Source: Octopus vulgaris (Eukaryota). From it: DNA of 64,000 bases. Numbering within the stretch: the first letter of the stretch is position 1; each line of letters opens with the position of its first letter. Location of the stretch: positions 32,612,001 to 32,676,000 of the forward strand of contig OX597823.1 in assembly GCA_951406725.2 (NCBI GenBank). The letters run 5' to 3'. The notes beneath the pieces are model-generated. The model was given only the letters and a program-made list of their open reading frames with translations. It was not told the origin of the DNA and searched no databases. A program made the translations under genes and the position numbers. Of this stretch, positions 1,161-43,739 are shown piece by piece.

Positions 1161-3190
1161 AGGGTGAGAGTTAACGAAAAGAACAAAAGGTGAAGACAGG
1201 TGGTGTAGAAAACTAAAAGATGTATTAGTATAACACTCAGGATTTGAAAAAGTCTTTCTCCAGAAAGGAACACAGAAAGAAGCAAGGAGAGAAAAAAATG
1301 CGTGTAGTGGTTACCGATCTATCATGGCGACTGCCGGACAGAAGGGTCACACAGGAGAGCGATGAAGTAGGGGAGATAAAGTAAAGATGATCCCCAAAAC
1401 GAAGGTGCATGTATGTATAAGAGAGTACATATGTGCGTGTGAAAGAGGGCTGTTGGTCTTGACTTGTGTAGGTGTGAAAATATGGGGATGGGAATTGGTC
1501 AGTGCTGGTTCGTGGGTGGTGTGTTGTGCGATATGTAGTGTGGTGTGGTGTGATGTTGTTGAGAGGTGGGGAAAGCACGGGTGGGGTTAGGCTGTGGGCT
1601 GGGGTATGTCGGTAGGCAGAGGGTGGGGTTTATGGGTAGGCAAAGGGTGGGGGTAGAGATGGGGTATGTGGGAGAGGGTGTAAGGGATGGGATGGGAAGG
1701 ATTGGGAATGTGGATTCGGAACGTGTAGGGGTAGGATGGGCTTATGGGGGTGGGTTGACGATGAAGGAGGAAGGGGAAGGTGGGTATGTGAGAAGAGAGA
1801 AAAAGAGTAGGGGTGAAGAAAAGTAGGAGTAGGCTCGTTTGAAGGAGGGGAGGGGTCGGTTAGGGAAGATGTGTGAAGTGGACAGGTCGGACTGGAAATG
1901 CTGGAAAGCTCAGAGAATGGTGCGTTGGAGAGGTAGGGTGGTAGGTGAGAGGAAAAGGGAGGTGGGAGACTATGGGGCAGGTTTGGGAGGAGAGAGCAGA
2001 TGCACTGTCCATGGAATGTGCTCTAGCAAGGGCGGTGTGGATAGTGGTGAGGGGATACCCACGTAGGATGAAGTGTTGAGACTGAGTCTCAAAGTCATGG
2101 TCGTCACTACAGAACCTGCGTAGACGGAGGTATTGGGAATAGGGGATGGAAAGCTTGGTGTGTTTGAGGTGGGAGGAGGAGAAGTTGAGGTATGAGTGTC
2201 AGTCTGTGTGTTTGTAGTGGATGGAGATGGTAAAAGGGGAGTGATGAATGCTGACCGAAATGTCAAGAAAGGAGACAGAGGTGTCAGAGATAGTGCAGAA
2301 GTGGAGGGCAGGATGGAAAGATTTGACAAAAGAGAGGAAGGAGTCTAGATGTTTGCGGGATAGTGAGGTGGCACCGATACAGTTGTCAATATAATGGCCA
2401 TATAGTTCGGGAGTGGGACCAGTGAAACTTGAGGATATTTGGGCCTCAACATAGCCAACGAACAGGTTCGCATAGTTGGGGCCCATTGTCGTTCCCATGG
2501 CTACTCCCGGAACTGCTGGTAGAAATCACCCGTGAACGAGAAGCAGTTGAGTGAGAGGACAAGTTCAGCCAGACGAACGAGTGTGGAGGTGTCGGGTTGG
2601 GAATTGGGTTAGAGATCAAGGACGTGTTTCAGTGCACACAGCCCCTCGTGGTGAGGGATCACCGTGTAAAGGCTCTGGATGTCGAGAGTGAAGAGAAGTT
2701 TAGAGGGGCCAGGAGGGAAGGAGAAAGAGTTGAATAGACGAAGAGCATGGTTGGTGTTATGGATGTGAGAAGGGAGAGAAGCCACTAGGGGGGCAAGGAC
2801 ACGGTCGAGATATTTGGAAATAAGCTCAGTGGAGCAGTTACAGGCGGAGACAATGGGGCGGCTAGGGTTGTTAGGGTTTTGGATTTTGGGGAGGAAGTAA
2901 ATGGTGGGGGTACGGGGTGTTTGGACAATGAGGTTGGAGGTGGTGTGGGGGAGACGGGAGGACGAGATAACGTCATGGATGGTGGAGGACACCGTCTGTT
3001 GGTAGCTGGGCATGGGGTCAGAGGGCAGAAGGTGGTGTCATGAAGTTGGCGGAGAGCTTCGGCCTTATAGAGGTCCGCGCGCCATACCACCACGGCCCCA
3101 CCCTTGTCGGTCGGTTTTATAATGATGTCAGTGCGGCGTCGGAGGAAACGAAGAGCCGAGAGTTCGGCTGGGGAGATGTTGAGACGACAG
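1161..3190 (-). mobile_element. Decayed Penelope-like retroelement (Neptune-type RT + thumb, 5'-truncated, with 3' terminal segment)
   Basis: Frameshifted minus-strand peptides: ADKGGAVVVW, TPTIYFLPKI..RPIVSACNCSTELISKYLD, LFTLDIQSLYTVIPH, MGTTMGPNYANLF, YIDN (for YIDD), IPYSQYLRLRRFCS, RGYP, PLTYHP. The terminal segment abuts (TA)n at about 1160. Confidence 0.9.
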
Positions 3191-10892: not shown

Positions 10893-11006
10893 TCATCATC
10901 ATTATCGTTTAACGTCTGCTTTCCATGCTAGCATGGGTTGGACAGTTCAACTGGGGTCTGATCTGGCAGTGTTTCTACAGCTGGATGCCCTTCCTAACGC
11001 CAACCT
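10893..11006 (-). mobile_element. SINE 3' fragment (RTE-type tail)
   Basis: CATCATCATTATCGTTTAACGTCTGCTTTCCATGCTAGCATGGG..GGATGCCCTTCCTAACGCCAACC. Confidence 0.8.
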
Positions 11007-11051
11007 TATATACATATATATATGTGTTTGTATATATATATATATATATAT

Positions 11052-11604
11052 AGCATAAAGCTTGAAACTTTTCAGCATTGAACTGCATGCTATTCTTTTC
11101 AGCCCACTTGTATATTTTGTCCAGCTCACATTGCAGGTACATAGTGTCTTCAGGTTCTGTATTACCTGTGAAACTTTTGTATCATCTGCATAACTTGTGA
11201 TCGTGGCTCTCTGTGTGGCTGAGGGCATGTCTGAGAGGGCCGTTATGAACAGCAGTGGTCCCAAAACAGTGCCTTGCGGAACACCACTCACTGTTTGCGT
11301 GTTATTGGAGGTGGCCCCATTGGCTACTACTACCTGACTTCTATCCTTCAGAAAGCATGAAGCCATTCTCCCAATTTTCCAACTATGCCAAGATCACGCA
11401 GTTTGTGACATATCATTCCATGATCGACTTTATCAAAGGTCTTTGCAAAGTTGAGATATATTACTTCCACATTTGAGTGGTTGAGCAGTCGTTTCAGCAC
11501 CCAGTCATAGTGTTGTTGGAGCTGAGTTAGGCAGCTTCTTCCTGGTCGGAAACCATGTTGGGTGTCAGGCAGCAAGTCATTTTCTTCTAGGAAGGTGATT
11601 AGTC
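11052..11604 (-). pseudogene. Internal RT fragment of a second CR1-group LINE family
   Basis: QHGFRPGRSCLTQL, IYLNFAKTFDKVDH, SGVPQGTVLGPLLF, SYADDTK; frameshifted; flanked by TA repeats on both sides. Confidence 0.9.
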
Positions 11605-12072: not shown

Positions 12073-12276
12073 TTACGGAGATGTACTCGCATAGCAAGTA
12101 ATTTGTTCTGAGATCGTGTGCTGAAACGAAAACAATTGCAGCGTGGGAGGTGTTTATAAGCCATTTAAGAAACACACAAAAGCCGTTCGATTCACTCCAA
12201 CATTTAAGTTTAATTTGTCAAAATATTTTCGTCGCTAAAATCCGCGACCTGTTCACTGACAAAGTCCGTGCTGCAT
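12073..12276 (-). mobile_element. About 205-bp non-coding cassette (probable PLE solo terminal repeat), copy 1
   Basis: Same sequence and same ends as 40828-41031; both copies embedded in (TA)n. Confidence 0.8.
12214..12263 (-). ncRNA. Variant type I hammerhead fold with G3:C8 core
   Basis: UUUGUCA-GUGAACA-G-GUCGC-GGAUUUUA-GCGAC-GAA-AAUAUU-U-UGACAAA: 7-bp stem I, 5-bp stem II, palindromic stem III. Confidence 0.7.
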
Positions 12277-12296
12277 CTCTATATATTTATATATAT

Positions 12297-13229: not shown

Positions 13230-13765
13230 AACCATCCACTCTCGCTCTCAACATTTCTGCTTAATGCCCAAGGCATCAGCCCTTCCACCAATACACAAAA
13301 ATGGAAGATAAGATTCCTGGAGGACTGGGTCGAGGCCCATCCAAACCACATCCCTTTCTTCGTCCTCACTGAAACCCATCTTAGTGACCTCCACTTGGAA
13401 GCCGAGGTGAAAGTTAAAAATTTCAAAACCATTCGTGCTGATCGTGTTGGCAGAAGAAAGGGTGGGACTGCCATTTATGTCCATGATTCATTCTCAACAG
13501 AAGCCATGAACATATTTTCGAATGGATACTGCGAAGCAGTCGCTGTATTCAGTCAAACCAACAACTTAACAGTAGTTGGGCTCTACAGACCACCCCAAAC
13601 GCCCCTACCATGCTTCAAGGAATGCCTCAACAGCATAAAGTGTTTCATTCAGCAGTGTCAACCTGACAACATTTTAATGATGGGAGATTTCAACCTTCCC
13701 GGGGTTGACTGGTCTACAAACAGTCTGCCGCCAGGTTCTTCTCTCTCAACCCCTGACAGGAGGCA
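13230..13765 (+). CDS. APE-type endonuclease domain of ORF2 (separated from neighbours by frameshifts)
   Basis: LLNAQGI, VLTETHL, RADR..KGGTAIYV, GLYRPP, MGDFNLP in one open frame from 13230; no ATG at its start. Confidence 0.85.
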
Positions 13766-16201
13766 GTGGAATCGCTTCTTGACTTCATGGATGACTTCTT
13801 CTTGTCCCAACTGGTACTCGAACCAACGAGATGTCACAAAAACGTCTTAGACTTAATTTTCAGCAATCACACTGATACTATCCACAATATTGCAGTGGAG
13901 AAAACCCTACTCTCCGACCATGACATGGTTCTCTGTGATCTGAGATTTCACTGGCCAAAATGCAAAACAAATGTCATCCCTCCTGTTCATCCATTTGACA
14001 CTATGGATTTCCACAATGCAAACTGGGAAGCGATCAATAATGATCTTGCACAAGTCGATTGGTCCTTCACGCACACATACACACCCACTAACATCAAAAA
14101 GTCCTGGCAGTCACTTGTAGACACCATCACGAACATATGTGCAAGACACACCCCATTAAGATCTGCAAACAAATCTAAGTGTCGAATCCCTAGAAATAGA
14201 AAATCTCTCATAAGGAAAATTAAAAGAATCAACAAAAAGATCAACGTGCTGAAATACTGTCAACAGCAACACACCAACCTGACTGCCATCTCGTCGCTAG
14301 AGATTAAAAAACATAAACTCCAAAACAACATGATGTCTATCATCAATAGTCAGCGAAGAGCTGAAGAGGCCTGGGCCATTGAGAAGATCAAACTCAATCC
14401 CAAAGTGTTCTTTTCATTTGCAAAAAAACACAGAGTCACTGGTTCTACTGTTGGCCCTCTGATTGATGAAAATGGTATTCTTCAAGACAATGCCAAAACC
14501 ATGGGAGAAATATTGCAGAAACAATATTGCTCTGTTTTCAGCAATCCTGATATGACTGATCTGGGCTGTATCAGTGATGTTACTCCCCAATACACTTTAT
14601 CGGACATAACATTTGGCGCTCCTGATGTCTTAGCAGCAATAAAGGAAATGAAGCATAATTCAGCAGTAGGTCCCGATAGGTTCCCTGCTTGTGTCTTGAA
14701 GATGTGTCAAAACCAACTTGCACCCCCTCTAGCCAATCTGTGGCGGAACTCATTGGATGCTGGATATATACCAGAAGACCTTCTATCCCAGTCTGTTGTC
14801 CCAGTTTTCAAAAAAGGAAACAAATCGCTTGCCGTGAATTACCGTCCAATCTCACTCACCTCTCATATCATCAAGGTATTTGAGAGGGTGCTGAGATCGC
14901 GTATGACTCACTTCCTTGAGAGTCATAATATGCTGAACCCCAACCAGCATGGATTCCGTAATGGGAGAGATTGCCTGACGCAGCTACTGCATCATTTTGA
15001 TGACATTTTGAGAGCCTTGGGAGAGGGTTCCAACACTGATGTCATCTACCTTGATTTCAGCAAGGCCTTTGACAGGGTTGATCATAAGATCCTTCTGAGA
15101 AAGCTGTCCAATATTGGTGTCACTGGAAAGCTGCTGCAATGGATCAAGTGCTTCCTCTCTAACAGAACCCAACATGTTGTAGTCGAAGGAGTCAAATCCA
15201 GCCCAGCCAAAGTCAGCAGTGGTGTCCCACAAGGCACTGTGTTGGGCCCACTTCTCTTCATCATCTACATAAATGATATTACTGACACCATCAAACACAG
15301 CAACATCAGAACCTTCGCTGATGATTCCAAGCTCCAGAAGGTCATCAATGGCGTGGATGACCGAATAAACCTTCAGTCAGACCTACTAGCTGTTGTCCAA
15401 TGGGCGGAAAAGAATAACATGTTGCTAAATAAAGACAAATTCGAACTGATCCACTTTGGAAGGGAGGACGCTCTGAAACTCCCATACTCTCTTCCTTCTG
15501 GAGAAATTCTCATGGCATCCAACAACATCAGAGACCTGGGAGTAACAGTGGACAACAACATAAGCTGGGCTACACATATAAGCAGCAAAGTTGACATGGC
15601 CCGCAGAATGTGTTCCTGGATTCTCAGAACCTTCCAGTCGAGAGATTCCCACGCTATTATCCTTCTCTTCTCCACTTTTGCCCGACCCCACCTTGAATAC
15701 TGCTGTCCACTGTGGTCTCCCTACACAAAACAAAATATTATGAGAATTGAAGCTCCCCAAAGGTCAATCACAAAAAAGATAGATGGCATGTCAGACCTTG
15801 ACTACTGGGGTAGACTAGAGAAGCTGAATTTGTATTCACTCCAACGACGCCGTGAACGCTACATTATCTGTATGATGTGGAAAATATTCCATCAGCACTG
15901 TCCGAATGATGTTGGCATCACCTTCAAAATGCATCCAAGGCTTGGACCACGTGCCATCCGTCCACAACAAAAATCTAAATCGCATCACATAACGACAATA
16001 CGGCACAACTATTTCACCTCAATTGGACCCGCTCTCTTCAACATTACACCAGGACACGTCAAAAAAGAAACTGACCACACAAAATTCAAGAAGTCTTTGG
16101 ACAAATTCCTTCAAACAGTACCGGACAAACCATCCACACCCGGATATGTCTCCGCAAACAATAACTCTCTGCTCGAATGGGCCTTGGTGCCCAAATCCTG
16201 A
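13766..16201 (+). CDS. ORF2 remainder: endonuclease C-terminus + reverse transcriptase (811 aa open)
   Basis: LDLIFSN, SDH, NYRPISLTS, QHGFR, DFSKAFD, GVPQGTVLGPLLF, FADD, RDLGV, RPHLEYC. The listed start is a frameshift artefact. Confidence 0.93.
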   Translation: MESLLDFMDDFFLSQLVLEPTRCHKNVLDLIFSNHTDTIHNIAVEKTLLSDHDMVLCDLRFHWPKCKTNVIPPVHPFDTMDFHNANWEAINNDLAQVDWSFTHTYTPTNIKKSWQSLVDTITNICARHTPLRSANKSKCRIPRNRKSLIRKIKRINKKINVLKYCQQQHTNLTAISSLEIKKHKLQNNMMSIINSQRRAEEAWAIEKIKLNPKVFFSFAKKHRVTGSTVGPLIDENGILQDNAKTMGEILQKQYCSVFSNPDMTDLGCISDVTPQYTLSDITFGAPDVLAAIKEMKHNSAVGPDRFPACVLKMCQNQLAPPLANLWRNSLDAGYIPEDLLSQSVVPVFKKGNKSLAVNYRPISLTSHIIKVFERVLRSRMTHFLESHNMLNPNQHGFRNGRDCLTQLLHHFDDILRALGEGSNTDVIYLDFSKAFDRVDHKILLRKLSNIGVTGKLLQWIKCFLSNRTQHVVVEGVKSSPAKVSSGVPQGTVLGPLLFIIYINDITDTIKHSNIRTFADDSKLQKVINGVDDRINLQSDLLAVVQWAEKNNMLLNKDKFELIHFGREDALKLPYSLPSGEILMASNNIRDLGVTVDNNISWATHISSKVDMARRMCSWILRTFQSRDSHAIILLFSTFARPHLEYCCPLWSPYTKQNIMRIEAPQRSITKKIDGMSDLDYWGRLEKLNLYSLQRRRERYIICMMWKIFHQHCPNDVGITFKMHPRLGPRAIRPQQKSKSHHITTIRHNYFTSIGPALFNITPGHVKKETDHTKFKKSLDKFLQTVPDKPSTPGYVSANNNSLLEWALVPKS

Positions 16202-40732: not shown

Positions 40733-40827
<95 letters not shown>

Positions 40828-40831
<4 letters not shown>

Positions 40832-41031
40832 GCACAGATTTTTGTCAGTGAACAGGTCACGGTCTTATAGCGATGAAAATATTTTGACAAATTAAACTTA
40901 AATGTTGAAGTGAATCGATCGGCTTTTGTGTGTTTCTTAAATGGCTTACAAACACCTTCCACGCTGCAATTGTTTTCATTTCAGTACACGATCTCAGATC
41001 AAATCACTTGCTATGCAAGTACATCTCCGTA
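40828..41031 (+). mobile_element. About 205-bp cassette, copy 2, with G3:C8 hammerhead fold at 40841-40891
   Basis: TTTGTCA-GTGAACA-G-GTCAC-GGTCTTATA-GCGAT-GAAAATATTT-TGACAAA; two CpG-type transitions in stem II relative to copy 1; (TA)n on both sides. Confidence 0.8.
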
Positions 41032-43739
41032 AATATATATATATATATATGATAGGCTTCTTTCAATTTCTCTGTGCCAAATCCACTCACAAGGCCATAA
41101 TCTGCTCAGGACTATAGTGAAGACACTTGCCCATGGTGCCACACTGAAACTGAACCCAAAGTCATATGGTTGAGAAGCAAACTTCTTAAGCACAAAGCCA
41201 CACCTATTACCTCAGTTCATTAGAAATTGGTTTTAAGTTATTTAGAAATGTATTTTTGGCTGGAAGAATGGTTTGCTCTGTTATTGAAATAGTTGATGTC
41301 TTTAGCTCAGTCTTTATATTCCAGTAGGTATAAATGATTTACCTTACACGCCCTTACTGCAATTAAAGTTTTGGAGAGGAATAAATCATATTGATATTAT
41401 TGCTAGCAATAATATAGTATTAGTGAATTCTAAGATTTAGTTTTCAATGACTCAATAATGAATAATGAATGATAATAATTAATAATGAATAATAAATGAT
41501 AATAATTAATAAGATGTCATGTGCTTTTATACTTTGGTTGCATATTTCATCTGTTATTCATCATGCCGTTCATCATCATAAACCAAAATCATTACAACTA
41601 TAAAAGGCAAAGATTTCCAGAATACTTCCATTACAATGTTTTCTGTCTTTTTTTTTTCCTTCTTTTTCTTCTCTTCAATGCAGTTCCTAAGACAATTTTA
41701 TTTCCATGTTTCCTTGAATCTTGCTTAGTTTCCTCCTATTGTTCTGGATGTCATGAAACATAAAGTATATTGTACATGGTTCAGTACATTACTGAAGAAA
41801 TTCCACATAGAGGGAACATAAACTGTGCTACATGTTTGTGGAAGTAAATAACATGTATAGAAAGCAAAGGACACAAGCTGTGCTACAAGCGTAAAAGTAA
41901 AGAATATAAGCTGTGCCAACAATGATGATTCTTTTGAGTGAAGTTAGTGACTTATTCATTCAAGTGCGACACGTACTGTTTCTCTTTTTAGCTTCCACAC
42001 ACATGTAGAAGGATTTGTGATTTGTATTTTTACATATGTATAGCACAGTTGGCATTCTTTATTTCTACATACATGTAGCAGGTTTTTGTTTGTTTTTTCC
42101 AAACATGTAGCTCTTCAGTAAAATTAGTTGCTAACTTCACTTGAAAGCAGAGCTATCCTTTCCTTTTTCTCCAGATATTTTAATGATACGAATGCCAATC
42201 TTATTTCATTATTCTCTAAATACCAACTCTTTGAGAATTCAGGTAATTTATGTAATCTACAAGATGAATCTAGTTTTAATAGAATTTCTTCAATTCTTAA
42301 AATTTTATTTTTTAACCACAAATTAATCTCAGGATAATTACCAAGTGATTTCGTTTCTAAATGAAACACTTATACAACTCGTACCGAAGTATTTTTAAAA
42401 GTAAAAGTCTGTTAAATTTTTAGAATGTTTCCACACATCATATATTAGAGCTAGAAAGTTAGAAAGCTGTCATGTAATGGAGATTTAACAGGACACTGTA
42501 TCTATGTAATCAAATAAGAACCATTTCTCTTGAGTGCTCTGAAATCTAATAGCAGATGATATGGCATTAAACAAACTGCTATCCATATGACCAGTCCGCT
42601 GCCTTTAGAGACAACGATTGCAATATTGGTCTGAACTGCTGGCTTTGTTATTTCACTGCTTATTCCATGCTATTATATTAATAACATTGTGACATTTCTA
42701 TGGCTCTTGTATTGTCTGATAAGTGTTTTGCTAATTATCATCTTAAATTAATTATATTTGCTTATATTTTTCTGTTTATTGAATCAGTCCCAATACTATT
42801 TAGGTCTACAATACACTTGTTTTATCTTAAACAGAAAGCACTTAATGGTATTTGTTAGCTATTTCTCTTTTAAGAATATCTTAATAAAAATGCATACATG
42901 TGTGTGTGTGTGTGTGTGTGTGTAATATGAGTAACATCTCTTTTATTGATATAACTATAAATTTCACACCAATTGATTCTGTAATGATGATGGATCCACC
43001 ATCAGTTTTGATGATAAGCAATCAACTGAATTATCTCTGCATTAAATTAACAAGTATGTGGCTGAGTATTCCACAGATGTGCATGCCCTTGATGTAACTC
43101 TCAGGCAGAACCAGTATAACACAATATGTGATGAGTCAGGATGTTTTGAATTACCAGAACAATTGATTCAGCAGGTTTCCTTACAATTTCCACTTGCTCA
43201 CCTTCACTCTGTGAGGCTATTGACCTGAGGCTGTGTAATAAAATATATTTTCCCAAGTTTGCTACACAGTGAAATCGAACTTGAGATCTCATGGTTGCAA
43301 AACAAACTTCTTAACTGTTTGGCCATATCTGAATCCAGATGATTATGTATTATTAGGTTGGATAAGATTAAGGTGAATGTAAATCATTCTAAGATAAATG
43401 CTATAAAAGGTGTATGGGCATGTTAGATACACTAAGAACTTTTTCCTGGTGAAATTGGGGTGCATGAACCCTTTAGCCCAGATATTCCTAACTGTTTTAG
43501 CTCAAACTGGCCAAATCTGACCTCTTACACCTGCCCTACAGTGTCATTCTAAAAATAAAAAAATCTCATCATTGATTTCTGCTGGCTTTTTGGAATCCAC
43601 AAAACGACACTACAGCCAGAAGCCAATAGCCAAAGCTGAAAGGAGACAATCATTTACCTTCATGGTTCTTTAGTGACCAAAAGCTCAAGCATTGAGCTTG
43701 GCCAAAGCTCAATGGTTAATGGCGAAGGGAGGTAATCAC

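Follow-up and report, generated by a model that had tools for sequence, protein, structure and literature searches.

Positions 3 and 8 of the hammerhead ribozyme form a pair that belongs to its active conformation. Minimal type I hammerheads of metazoan Penelope-like elements (PLEs) were described by Cervera and de la Pena (2014; PMC4209133). They are weak in vitro (PMC4209133), and their extra nucleotide and dependence on dimers are also known (PMC4209133; PMC6765202). The 3:8 pair is stated in PMC3088659, and natural U3:A8 variants have been reported there and for the Schistosoma Cercyon PLEs (about 1,300 matches; PMC4209133). According to a review on other hammerheads, single 3:8 changes abolish cleavage and the double change partly restores it (PMC8495972). 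In the Poseidon hammerhead of Anolis, too, each single change abolished cleavage and C3G/G8C partly restored it; cleavage of this element was protein-assisted and not needed for insertion in vitro (PMC11167929). A G3-C8 variant was reported to be weaker with C17 (PMC3884650, data not shown there). PLE hammerheads are thus known as weak cutters that are dispensable for insertion in vitro (PMC4209133, PMC11167929). We found no natural G3:C8 hammerhead in the full texts and supplements searched, whose coverage is incomplete and leaves out figures, so that the gap is unproven; the literature on the host together with Penelope and hammerhead yielded no description of the family studied here.

The hammerhead motif in the window

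The 64-kb window, i.e. the whole stretch of DNA analysed, carries on the minus strand of 12276-12073 a minimal type I hammerhead with all parts present (Table 1): stems I and II, the G10.1-C11.1 pair, an extra nucleotide after position 9 and a palindromic stem III region. The literal CUGANGA core is absent; the core bears G3 and C8, and the Watson-Crick 3:8 pair is present as G:C. In folding predictions stems I and II form the minimum-energy fold (z -2.95; 2 of 200 shuffles equally good), with pairing probabilities of 0.71-1.0 in the context of the whole 204 nt. The complete type I fold with G3:C8, first proposed in a sequence-only reading of this DNA, is thus borne out. When positions 3 and 8 were left open, a scan returned this motif as the sole match in the window, and the control, 20 block-shuffled windows, gave 1 match of equal stem length. 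Rfam found nothing on the element at the gathering score and, up to E = 10, no hammerhead family, indicating that the G3:C8 motif escapes standard searches, as had been foreseen for those based on CUGANGA.

From hammerhead numbering, cleavage is expected between 12221 and 12220, and the AAUAUU hexamer is predicted to form stem III of a dimer. According to energy predictions, a one-pair stem III costs 5.4 kcal/mol, while the hexamer duplex by itself provides only -0.2 kcal/mol. The cost of the one-pair stem and the self-complementarity of the hexamer suggest that the hammerhead needs a partner or, as in the Anolis element, the help of a protein. In the young subfamily the unit opens with an ATG whose 7-codon frame (12253-12276, minus strand) is closed by the UGA within the hammerhead core; as older copies carry one more base, this frame is not conserved.

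Table 1. Features of the window, with positions counted from its first letter
Feature	Positions	Strand	Basis
Solo terminal unit (pseudo-LTR end and tail) of a Neptune/Nematis-type PLE, young subfamily, in a (TA)n tract	12073..12276	-	99.5% identity to 29 other loci; ORF-bearing copies end in it
Optional tail, element positions about 146-204, absent from shorter arms	12073..12131	-	3′ ends of 94 arms
Start of the parent RT-GIY-YIG ORF: ATG (12164) and first 30 codons	12073..12164	-	tandem copies L079 and L087 continue in frame
5′ G-AG; AG as in parent, G not in parent	12277..12279	-	sequence; free 5′ ends
Stem I, 5′ arm, 7 bp	12257..12263	-	sequence and predicted fold
Catalytic core, positions 3-9; G3 = 12256, C8 = 12251	12250..12256	-	sequence; family counts
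Extra unpaired G (12249), 5-bp stem II and 8-nt loop 2	12231..12249	-	sequence; subfamily comparison
Stem II arms, opened by a G-C pair	12248-12244 with 12235-12231	-	sequence
G12-A13-A14 (12230-12228), self-complementary AAUAUU (12227-12222), U17 (12221)	12221..12230	-	
Stem I, 3′ arm	12214..12220	-	sequence and predicted fold
Second, older solo copy in a (TA)n tract	40827..41032	+	91.7% identical to first copy
Non-LTR retrotransposon	13230-16198	+	domains of AP-endonuclease and RT on two frames (RT frame, 814 aa)
RT fragment of another non-LTR element	10950-11393	-	
142-aa frame resembling the N-terminal RT region of a Penelope/Poseidon-type element	2612-3037	-	motif resemblance; no Pfam match

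The second copy had been described as sharing core and ends with the first. Its core is indeed the same (G3 at 40848, C8 at 40853) and its ends fall at 40827 and 41032. The hammerhead, on the other hand, is not intact: two CpG-type transitions have left one A.C mismatch and one G-U in stem II, so we regard this as a decayed copy.

The parent element

The host is likely an octopus, as a database protein with this label is 100% identical to its genome over 132 aa. A DNA search of the element's own genome (2.8 Gb) with the 204-bp sequence gave 1,437 candidates, of which the 40 scored are full length and ~99.5% identical; the window copy is 99.5% identical to 29 other loci retrieved. In many copies an ORF end lies upstream, separated from the unit by a spacer of ~1 kb, and the 204-bp unit terminates these ORF-bearing copies. 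The ATG of the parent ORF corresponds to element position 113, the last 92 bases of the unit being the start of the ORF, and in the tandem copy L079 the repeat unit measures 4,261 bp (~4.26 kb). An origin as a solo PLE terminal repeat had been among the initial proposals, along with a search for a parent that ends in the unit. Such an autonomous parent exists and ends in the same 204 bp (ORF-bearing copies, L078, L079), which upholds the origin and at the same time removes the idea of an ORF-less family, as the unit itself closes with the parent's ORF start. In the parent, (TACA)n and (TA)n-like repeats, whose length differs from copy to copy, abound in the spacer (L034:8000-8945).

L078 contains a 1,025-aa open stretch with RT motifs and C-terminal GIY-YIG cysteines and histidines (CCHH), and a CX3CxxC linker motif lies at residue 869 of its translation. 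Pfam recognized GIY-YIG in the parent ORF (25.5 bits vs. a cut-off of 22.6); RVT_1 gave no match to this ORF, Pfam gave nothing for its 456-aa C-terminal part, and a search of solved structures returned nothing. The single ORF with RT and C-terminal GIY-YIG (CCHH) is that of an endonuclease-bearing PLE, the layout (partial tandem pseudo-LTRs, inverted 5′-truncated copies, an optional tail) is that of PLEs, and the linker agrees with the CX2-5CxxC motif of Neptune and Nematis as defined in PMC8557442. The element is almost certainly an endonuclease-bearing PLE, of either Neptune or Nematis type by these definitions. Both window copies are inserted in (TA)n tracts, and the parent is a recently active, (TA)n-targeting PLE.

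Probable origin and upkeep of the G3:C8 pair

The closest relative found is a second PLE family of the same genome (L199), with 56% protein identity and a sister position supported at 100/99 in an RT tree of 18 rows, from which the short rows L229, L232, and L235 were left out. Its hammerhead has C3:G8, the same extra G and U17, and was found by a relaxed scan, since the strict scan misses its C9. Outside the hammerhead, there is no clear DNA similarity between the sister family's repeat and the 204 bp. An older canonical family shares the sister family's downstream sequence. The sister family (L186-L210; motif at L199:2646-2690) is itself young and abundant, with open frames of ~1,310 aa; C9 replaces the conserved A9 in its young copies, and A9 is found in older ones.

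Among 32 metagenome loci, 26 were scanned downstream of the ORF; the scan demanded stem II pairing and left the 3:8 letters free. Seven of the 26 have a counted hammerhead (five C3:G8, two U3:A8) and 19 yielded none that was counted, many of these having <400 bases downstream; four weak off-position matches (G:A, A:U, C:C, U:A) were left uncounted, and the reverse-strand control gave 1 match in 15,383 bases. Both U3:A8 hammerheads (L212:2497 and L220:2426) lie behind related PLE ORFs on separate tree branches, suggesting a repeated origin of this pair. L212 combines U3:A8 with C9.

When ten motifs were aligned, positions 3 and 8 turned out to be paired in all ten cores (CG 7, UA 2, GC 1), two-sided changes occur at four of the five stem II pairs (a score attained by 0 of 500 shuffles), and the extra nucleotide G is common to 8 of 9 aligned relatives. 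As the sister has C3:G8 and other relatives C3:G8 or U3:A8, G3:C8 is most simply derived from C3:G8, and with 10/10 cores paired it is likely one derived compensatory change. The compensatory reading, as originally put forward, is supported by these comparisons; compensation at 3:8 would probably have occurred under selection, in a single evolutionary event. The U17 of the sister may have eased the swap, given that the G3-C8 variant is weaker with C17 (PMC3884650). To judge from the aligned motifs, the self-cutting fold is likely still under selection, the cutting being predicted.

Within its own genome the pair is a fixed family trait, as surmised from the two window copies: G3:C8 is found in 94 of the first 100 family-pattern matches and in 7,106 motifs genome-wide. 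The latter number comes from a single looser pattern, which also gave 1,892 C3:G8 and 397 unpaired motifs vs. ~3,250 unpaired if the positions were independent; this table reflects two lineages and amounts to one event, not thousands. Thousands of motifs in a single genome can thus escape CUGANGA descriptors and Rfam, a point of relevance to PLE groups reported without hammerheads (PMC8557442). Sequencing runs that bear four species labels (20 of 24 rows, from 10 studies), none of them listed as RNA, also contain near-identical sequence, and contigs labelled as species B and D show the same core.

The family pattern with positions 3 and 8 free had 8,494 matches (each arm counted), including 287 non-G3 and 509 non-C8. 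Changes at both sites were seen in nine of the first 100 non-G3 copies, i.e. ~26 by extrapolation vs. 17 expected, and the single C3:G8 among these doubles is also listed in the canonical family. The sequence-only reading had named independent variation of 3 and 8 across copies as an outcome that would speak against it. Among copies this is literally what we observe, with doubles close to chance, yet it is no refutation, because it reflects neutral decay after insertion and the lineages are the informative comparison. Covariation of the stems, likewise called for, is absent inside the family, where stems I and II are unchanged, and present for stem II in the ten-motif alignment.

Columns were compared over 54 loci with 76-99% identity to the window copy, after six near-identical loci had been dropped. 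Shared non-CpG variants were found in 0 of 42 structured hammerhead columns vs. 10 of 70 other non-coding columns (p = 0.013), and four of these ten variable columns lie in the 8-column loop 2. Loop 2 differs among subfamilies, while stem II is constant apart from CpG decay. As the loci were chosen through an 18-base core pattern, the test is weakened; without the 18 pattern-fixed columns the comparison is 0/24 vs. 10/70 (p = 0.06). These column counts are therefore suggestive only of constraint on the structured hammerhead within the family.

Alternatively, the fold could be a relic that does not cut, with G3 and C8 fixed sequentially by drift or hitch-hiking in a master element and the stems kept in the 5′ leader as a structure for protein binding or translational control. 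Two chance changes would, however, yield the exact reciprocal pair in only 1 of 9 cases, the other core letters (U4, G5, A6, A9, G12-A14, A15.1, U16.1) are untouched, and 10/10 relatives pair at 3:8. This has to be set against copies that retain the uncut motif, a hammerhead that is dispensable for insertion in vitro (PMC11167929), core changes tolerated in the sister, whose young copies have C9 for A9, and the long protein branch of the G3:C8 family (0.41 changes per site). On balance we consider a relic fold unlikely and prefer compensation under selection.

Copy ends, template, and comparison with known elements

Copy layout was analysed in 60 loci, sampled as the first pattern matches on contig C1. 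The parent's upstream sequence is present in only 7 of them, and 34 have two or more arms, mostly head-to-head. The 3′ ends of 94 arms fall at 195-204 (49 arms), at 140-149 (40), or elsewhere (5), and (TA)3 follows 28 of 43 long 3′ ends. These two end classes match the PLE tail, which results in vitro from RT starting at two internal sites (PMC11167929). Pseudo-LTR promoters, solo repeats and head-to-head palindromes are known from PLEs (PMC2377424, PMC3846280), which makes the copy layouts ordinary for this group. One fold-back copy was co-amplified in a larger repeat, with 93-98% identity over 1 kb or more of its surroundings at nine C1 loci (L137, L139, L174, L175, L179, L180, L183, L104, and L125).

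An anchored start at position 1 was found in 35 of the 60 loci, 29 of them without the parent's upstream DNA. AG is retained in 19 of these 29 free 5′ ends, and in 11 of the 19 it is preceded by G, a site occupied by T or C in the parent (p = 0.002 vs. one in four). Genome-wide, 1,039 G-AG starts were counted vs. 819 parent-continuous starts. Reverse transcriptases can copy the cap as an extra base. One dominant start, to which an untemplated G is often added, suggests that the template was a capped transcript left uncut, and the extra 5′ G of the window copy (12277..12279) is likely such a cap-derived base. We lean towards a capped transcript that started at the A at -2 and had its cap copied as G.

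Free 5′ ends that finish in AG (19 of 29) also look like exon ends, and the unit could begin at a 3′ splice acceptor whose intron is still present in long copies, as in Penelope of Drosophila virilis; the AG dinucleotides newly made by G3 and C8 could then be splice signals, not catalytic compensation. The Penelope intron ends at helix I (PMC4209133), and the parent spacer closes with a branch-point-like pentamer, a pyrimidine tract and YAG directly before position 1, in young and old subfamilies alike, but the 974-base spacer lacks a GAG-GT donor (the best donor matches 6/9), the free 5′ ends share no common upstream exon beyond G-AG, and their extra bases often repeat the element's own start. 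Contigs from four sequencing runs, compared with the ORF end, the spacer and the unit, show neither a GT-AG joint nor an accumulation of ends, a result that for contigs weighs neither way. A spliced RNA as source of the unit appears highly improbable; the acceptor itself, as judged by sequence, may be real for full-length transcripts. An independent non-LTR retrozyme, cut to monomers, circularised and amplified by rolling circle, is hardly credible, and the stand-alone retrozyme-like family first considered for this DNA is dropped: length near 200 nt and a type I hammerhead do fit animal retrozymes (PMC7229834) and one partial head-to-tail repeat occurs at L169, but an autonomous coding parent exists, copies in the 60 sampled loci are solo or head-to-head (two or more arms, mostly head-to-head, in 34), their ends at 1, about 145 and 204 lie away from the cut site, and stem III is minimal. 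The one arm of 94 that starts at 51-62, around the predicted cut site, was left out of the argument as a biased count, the loci having been picked by a pattern upstream of the cut.

The reading that we consider probable is that a PLE terminal repeat with the ORF start was copied from a short uncut transcript, by the reverse transcriptase and endonuclease of the element itself, and bears a fixed, once-arisen G3:C8 core of predicted weak, assisted cleavage. Its observed points are the parent element, the tandem and fold-back layouts, the two 3′ ends, the one dominant 5′ start, the fixation of G3:C8 and the paired relatives. Between these, transcription would begin at the A at -2 relative to the unit, and an extra G would result from copying of the cap. 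The RT-endonuclease would bind the ORF-start region and nick (TA)n DNA, cDNA synthesis would set in at one of two internal sites, about 145 or about 204, to yield arms without or with the tail, and template switching would produce head-to-head fold-backs, short terminal-repeat transcripts being the source of solo and fold-back copies. Two hammerheads would pair via the self-complementary hexamer, with G3 paired to C8 and slow cleavage after U17; slow cutting would leave most templates to be copied uncut, which fits the uncut motif seen in the copies. G3:C8 would restore the core pair, and selection on master elements would retain it. Measurable cleavage by the G3:C8 hammerhead, assisted by a dimer or a protein, is reasonably likely on this model. 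It is doubtful, by comparison, that a working G3:C8 hammerhead is attenuated by the swap, leaving capped, uncut terminal-repeat transcripts to persist and multiply as a SINE-like 204-nt unit. If true, such attenuation would account for the almost fourfold excess of the G3:C8 family over its canonical-core sister, and the activity of PLE hammerheads would be tuned by selection.

As the 3:8 pair is part of the active conformation, a lineage in which both letters were transverted and the pair was kept provides natural evidence for the importance of this conformation to the element. An abundant, recently active family and its canonical sister in one genome also offer a ready comparison for assays.

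Short, hammerhead-bearing, PLE-related repeats are shared with non-LTR retrozymes (PMC7229834; bioRxiv 10.64898/2026.07.22.740005), from which the present family differs in having no tandem arrays, ends off the cut site and 99% identity to an autonomous parent. With Neptune/Nematis PLEs (PMC8557442) it has in common the C-terminal GIY-YIG with CCHH, the CX2-5CxxC linker, tandem and inverted layouts and microsatellite targets; the variant ribozyme core, the ~1-kb microsatellite-rich spacer and the strong excess of one-point starts set it apart. The minimal hammerheads of PLEs (PMC4209133) show the same pseudo-LTR position, extra nucleotide between 9 and 10.1, G10.1-C11.1, palindromic stem III region, U-rich lead and thousands of mostly single copies, so that the extra nucleotide and the palindrome are ordinary features. 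In contrast to them, the motif described here has G3:C8 instead of C3:G8, a stem I of 7 bp vs. 4-5, and as extra nucleotide a G, outside the published consensus H. A natural two-sided 3:8 change is also seen in the U3:A8 hammerheads (PMC3088659, PMC4209133), as in the relatives L212 and L220, yet U3:A8 requires two transitions and keeps a purine at 8, whereas G3:C8 requires two transversions and places a pyrimidine there. The engineered C3G/G8C of Anolis (PMC11167929) has the same pair in a PLE hammerhead, a tail with two RT starts and AT-rich targets. That pair is a laboratory mutant in the Penelope/Poseidon clade, whereas here it is natural and fixed, in an element with the hammerhead wholly upstream of the ATG, a linker zinc finger and a tail of ~59 bases. 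The class of the element is therefore ordinary; what is new is a G3:C8 core that is both fixed and polarised, in a family that is young and abundant and has a canonical sister.
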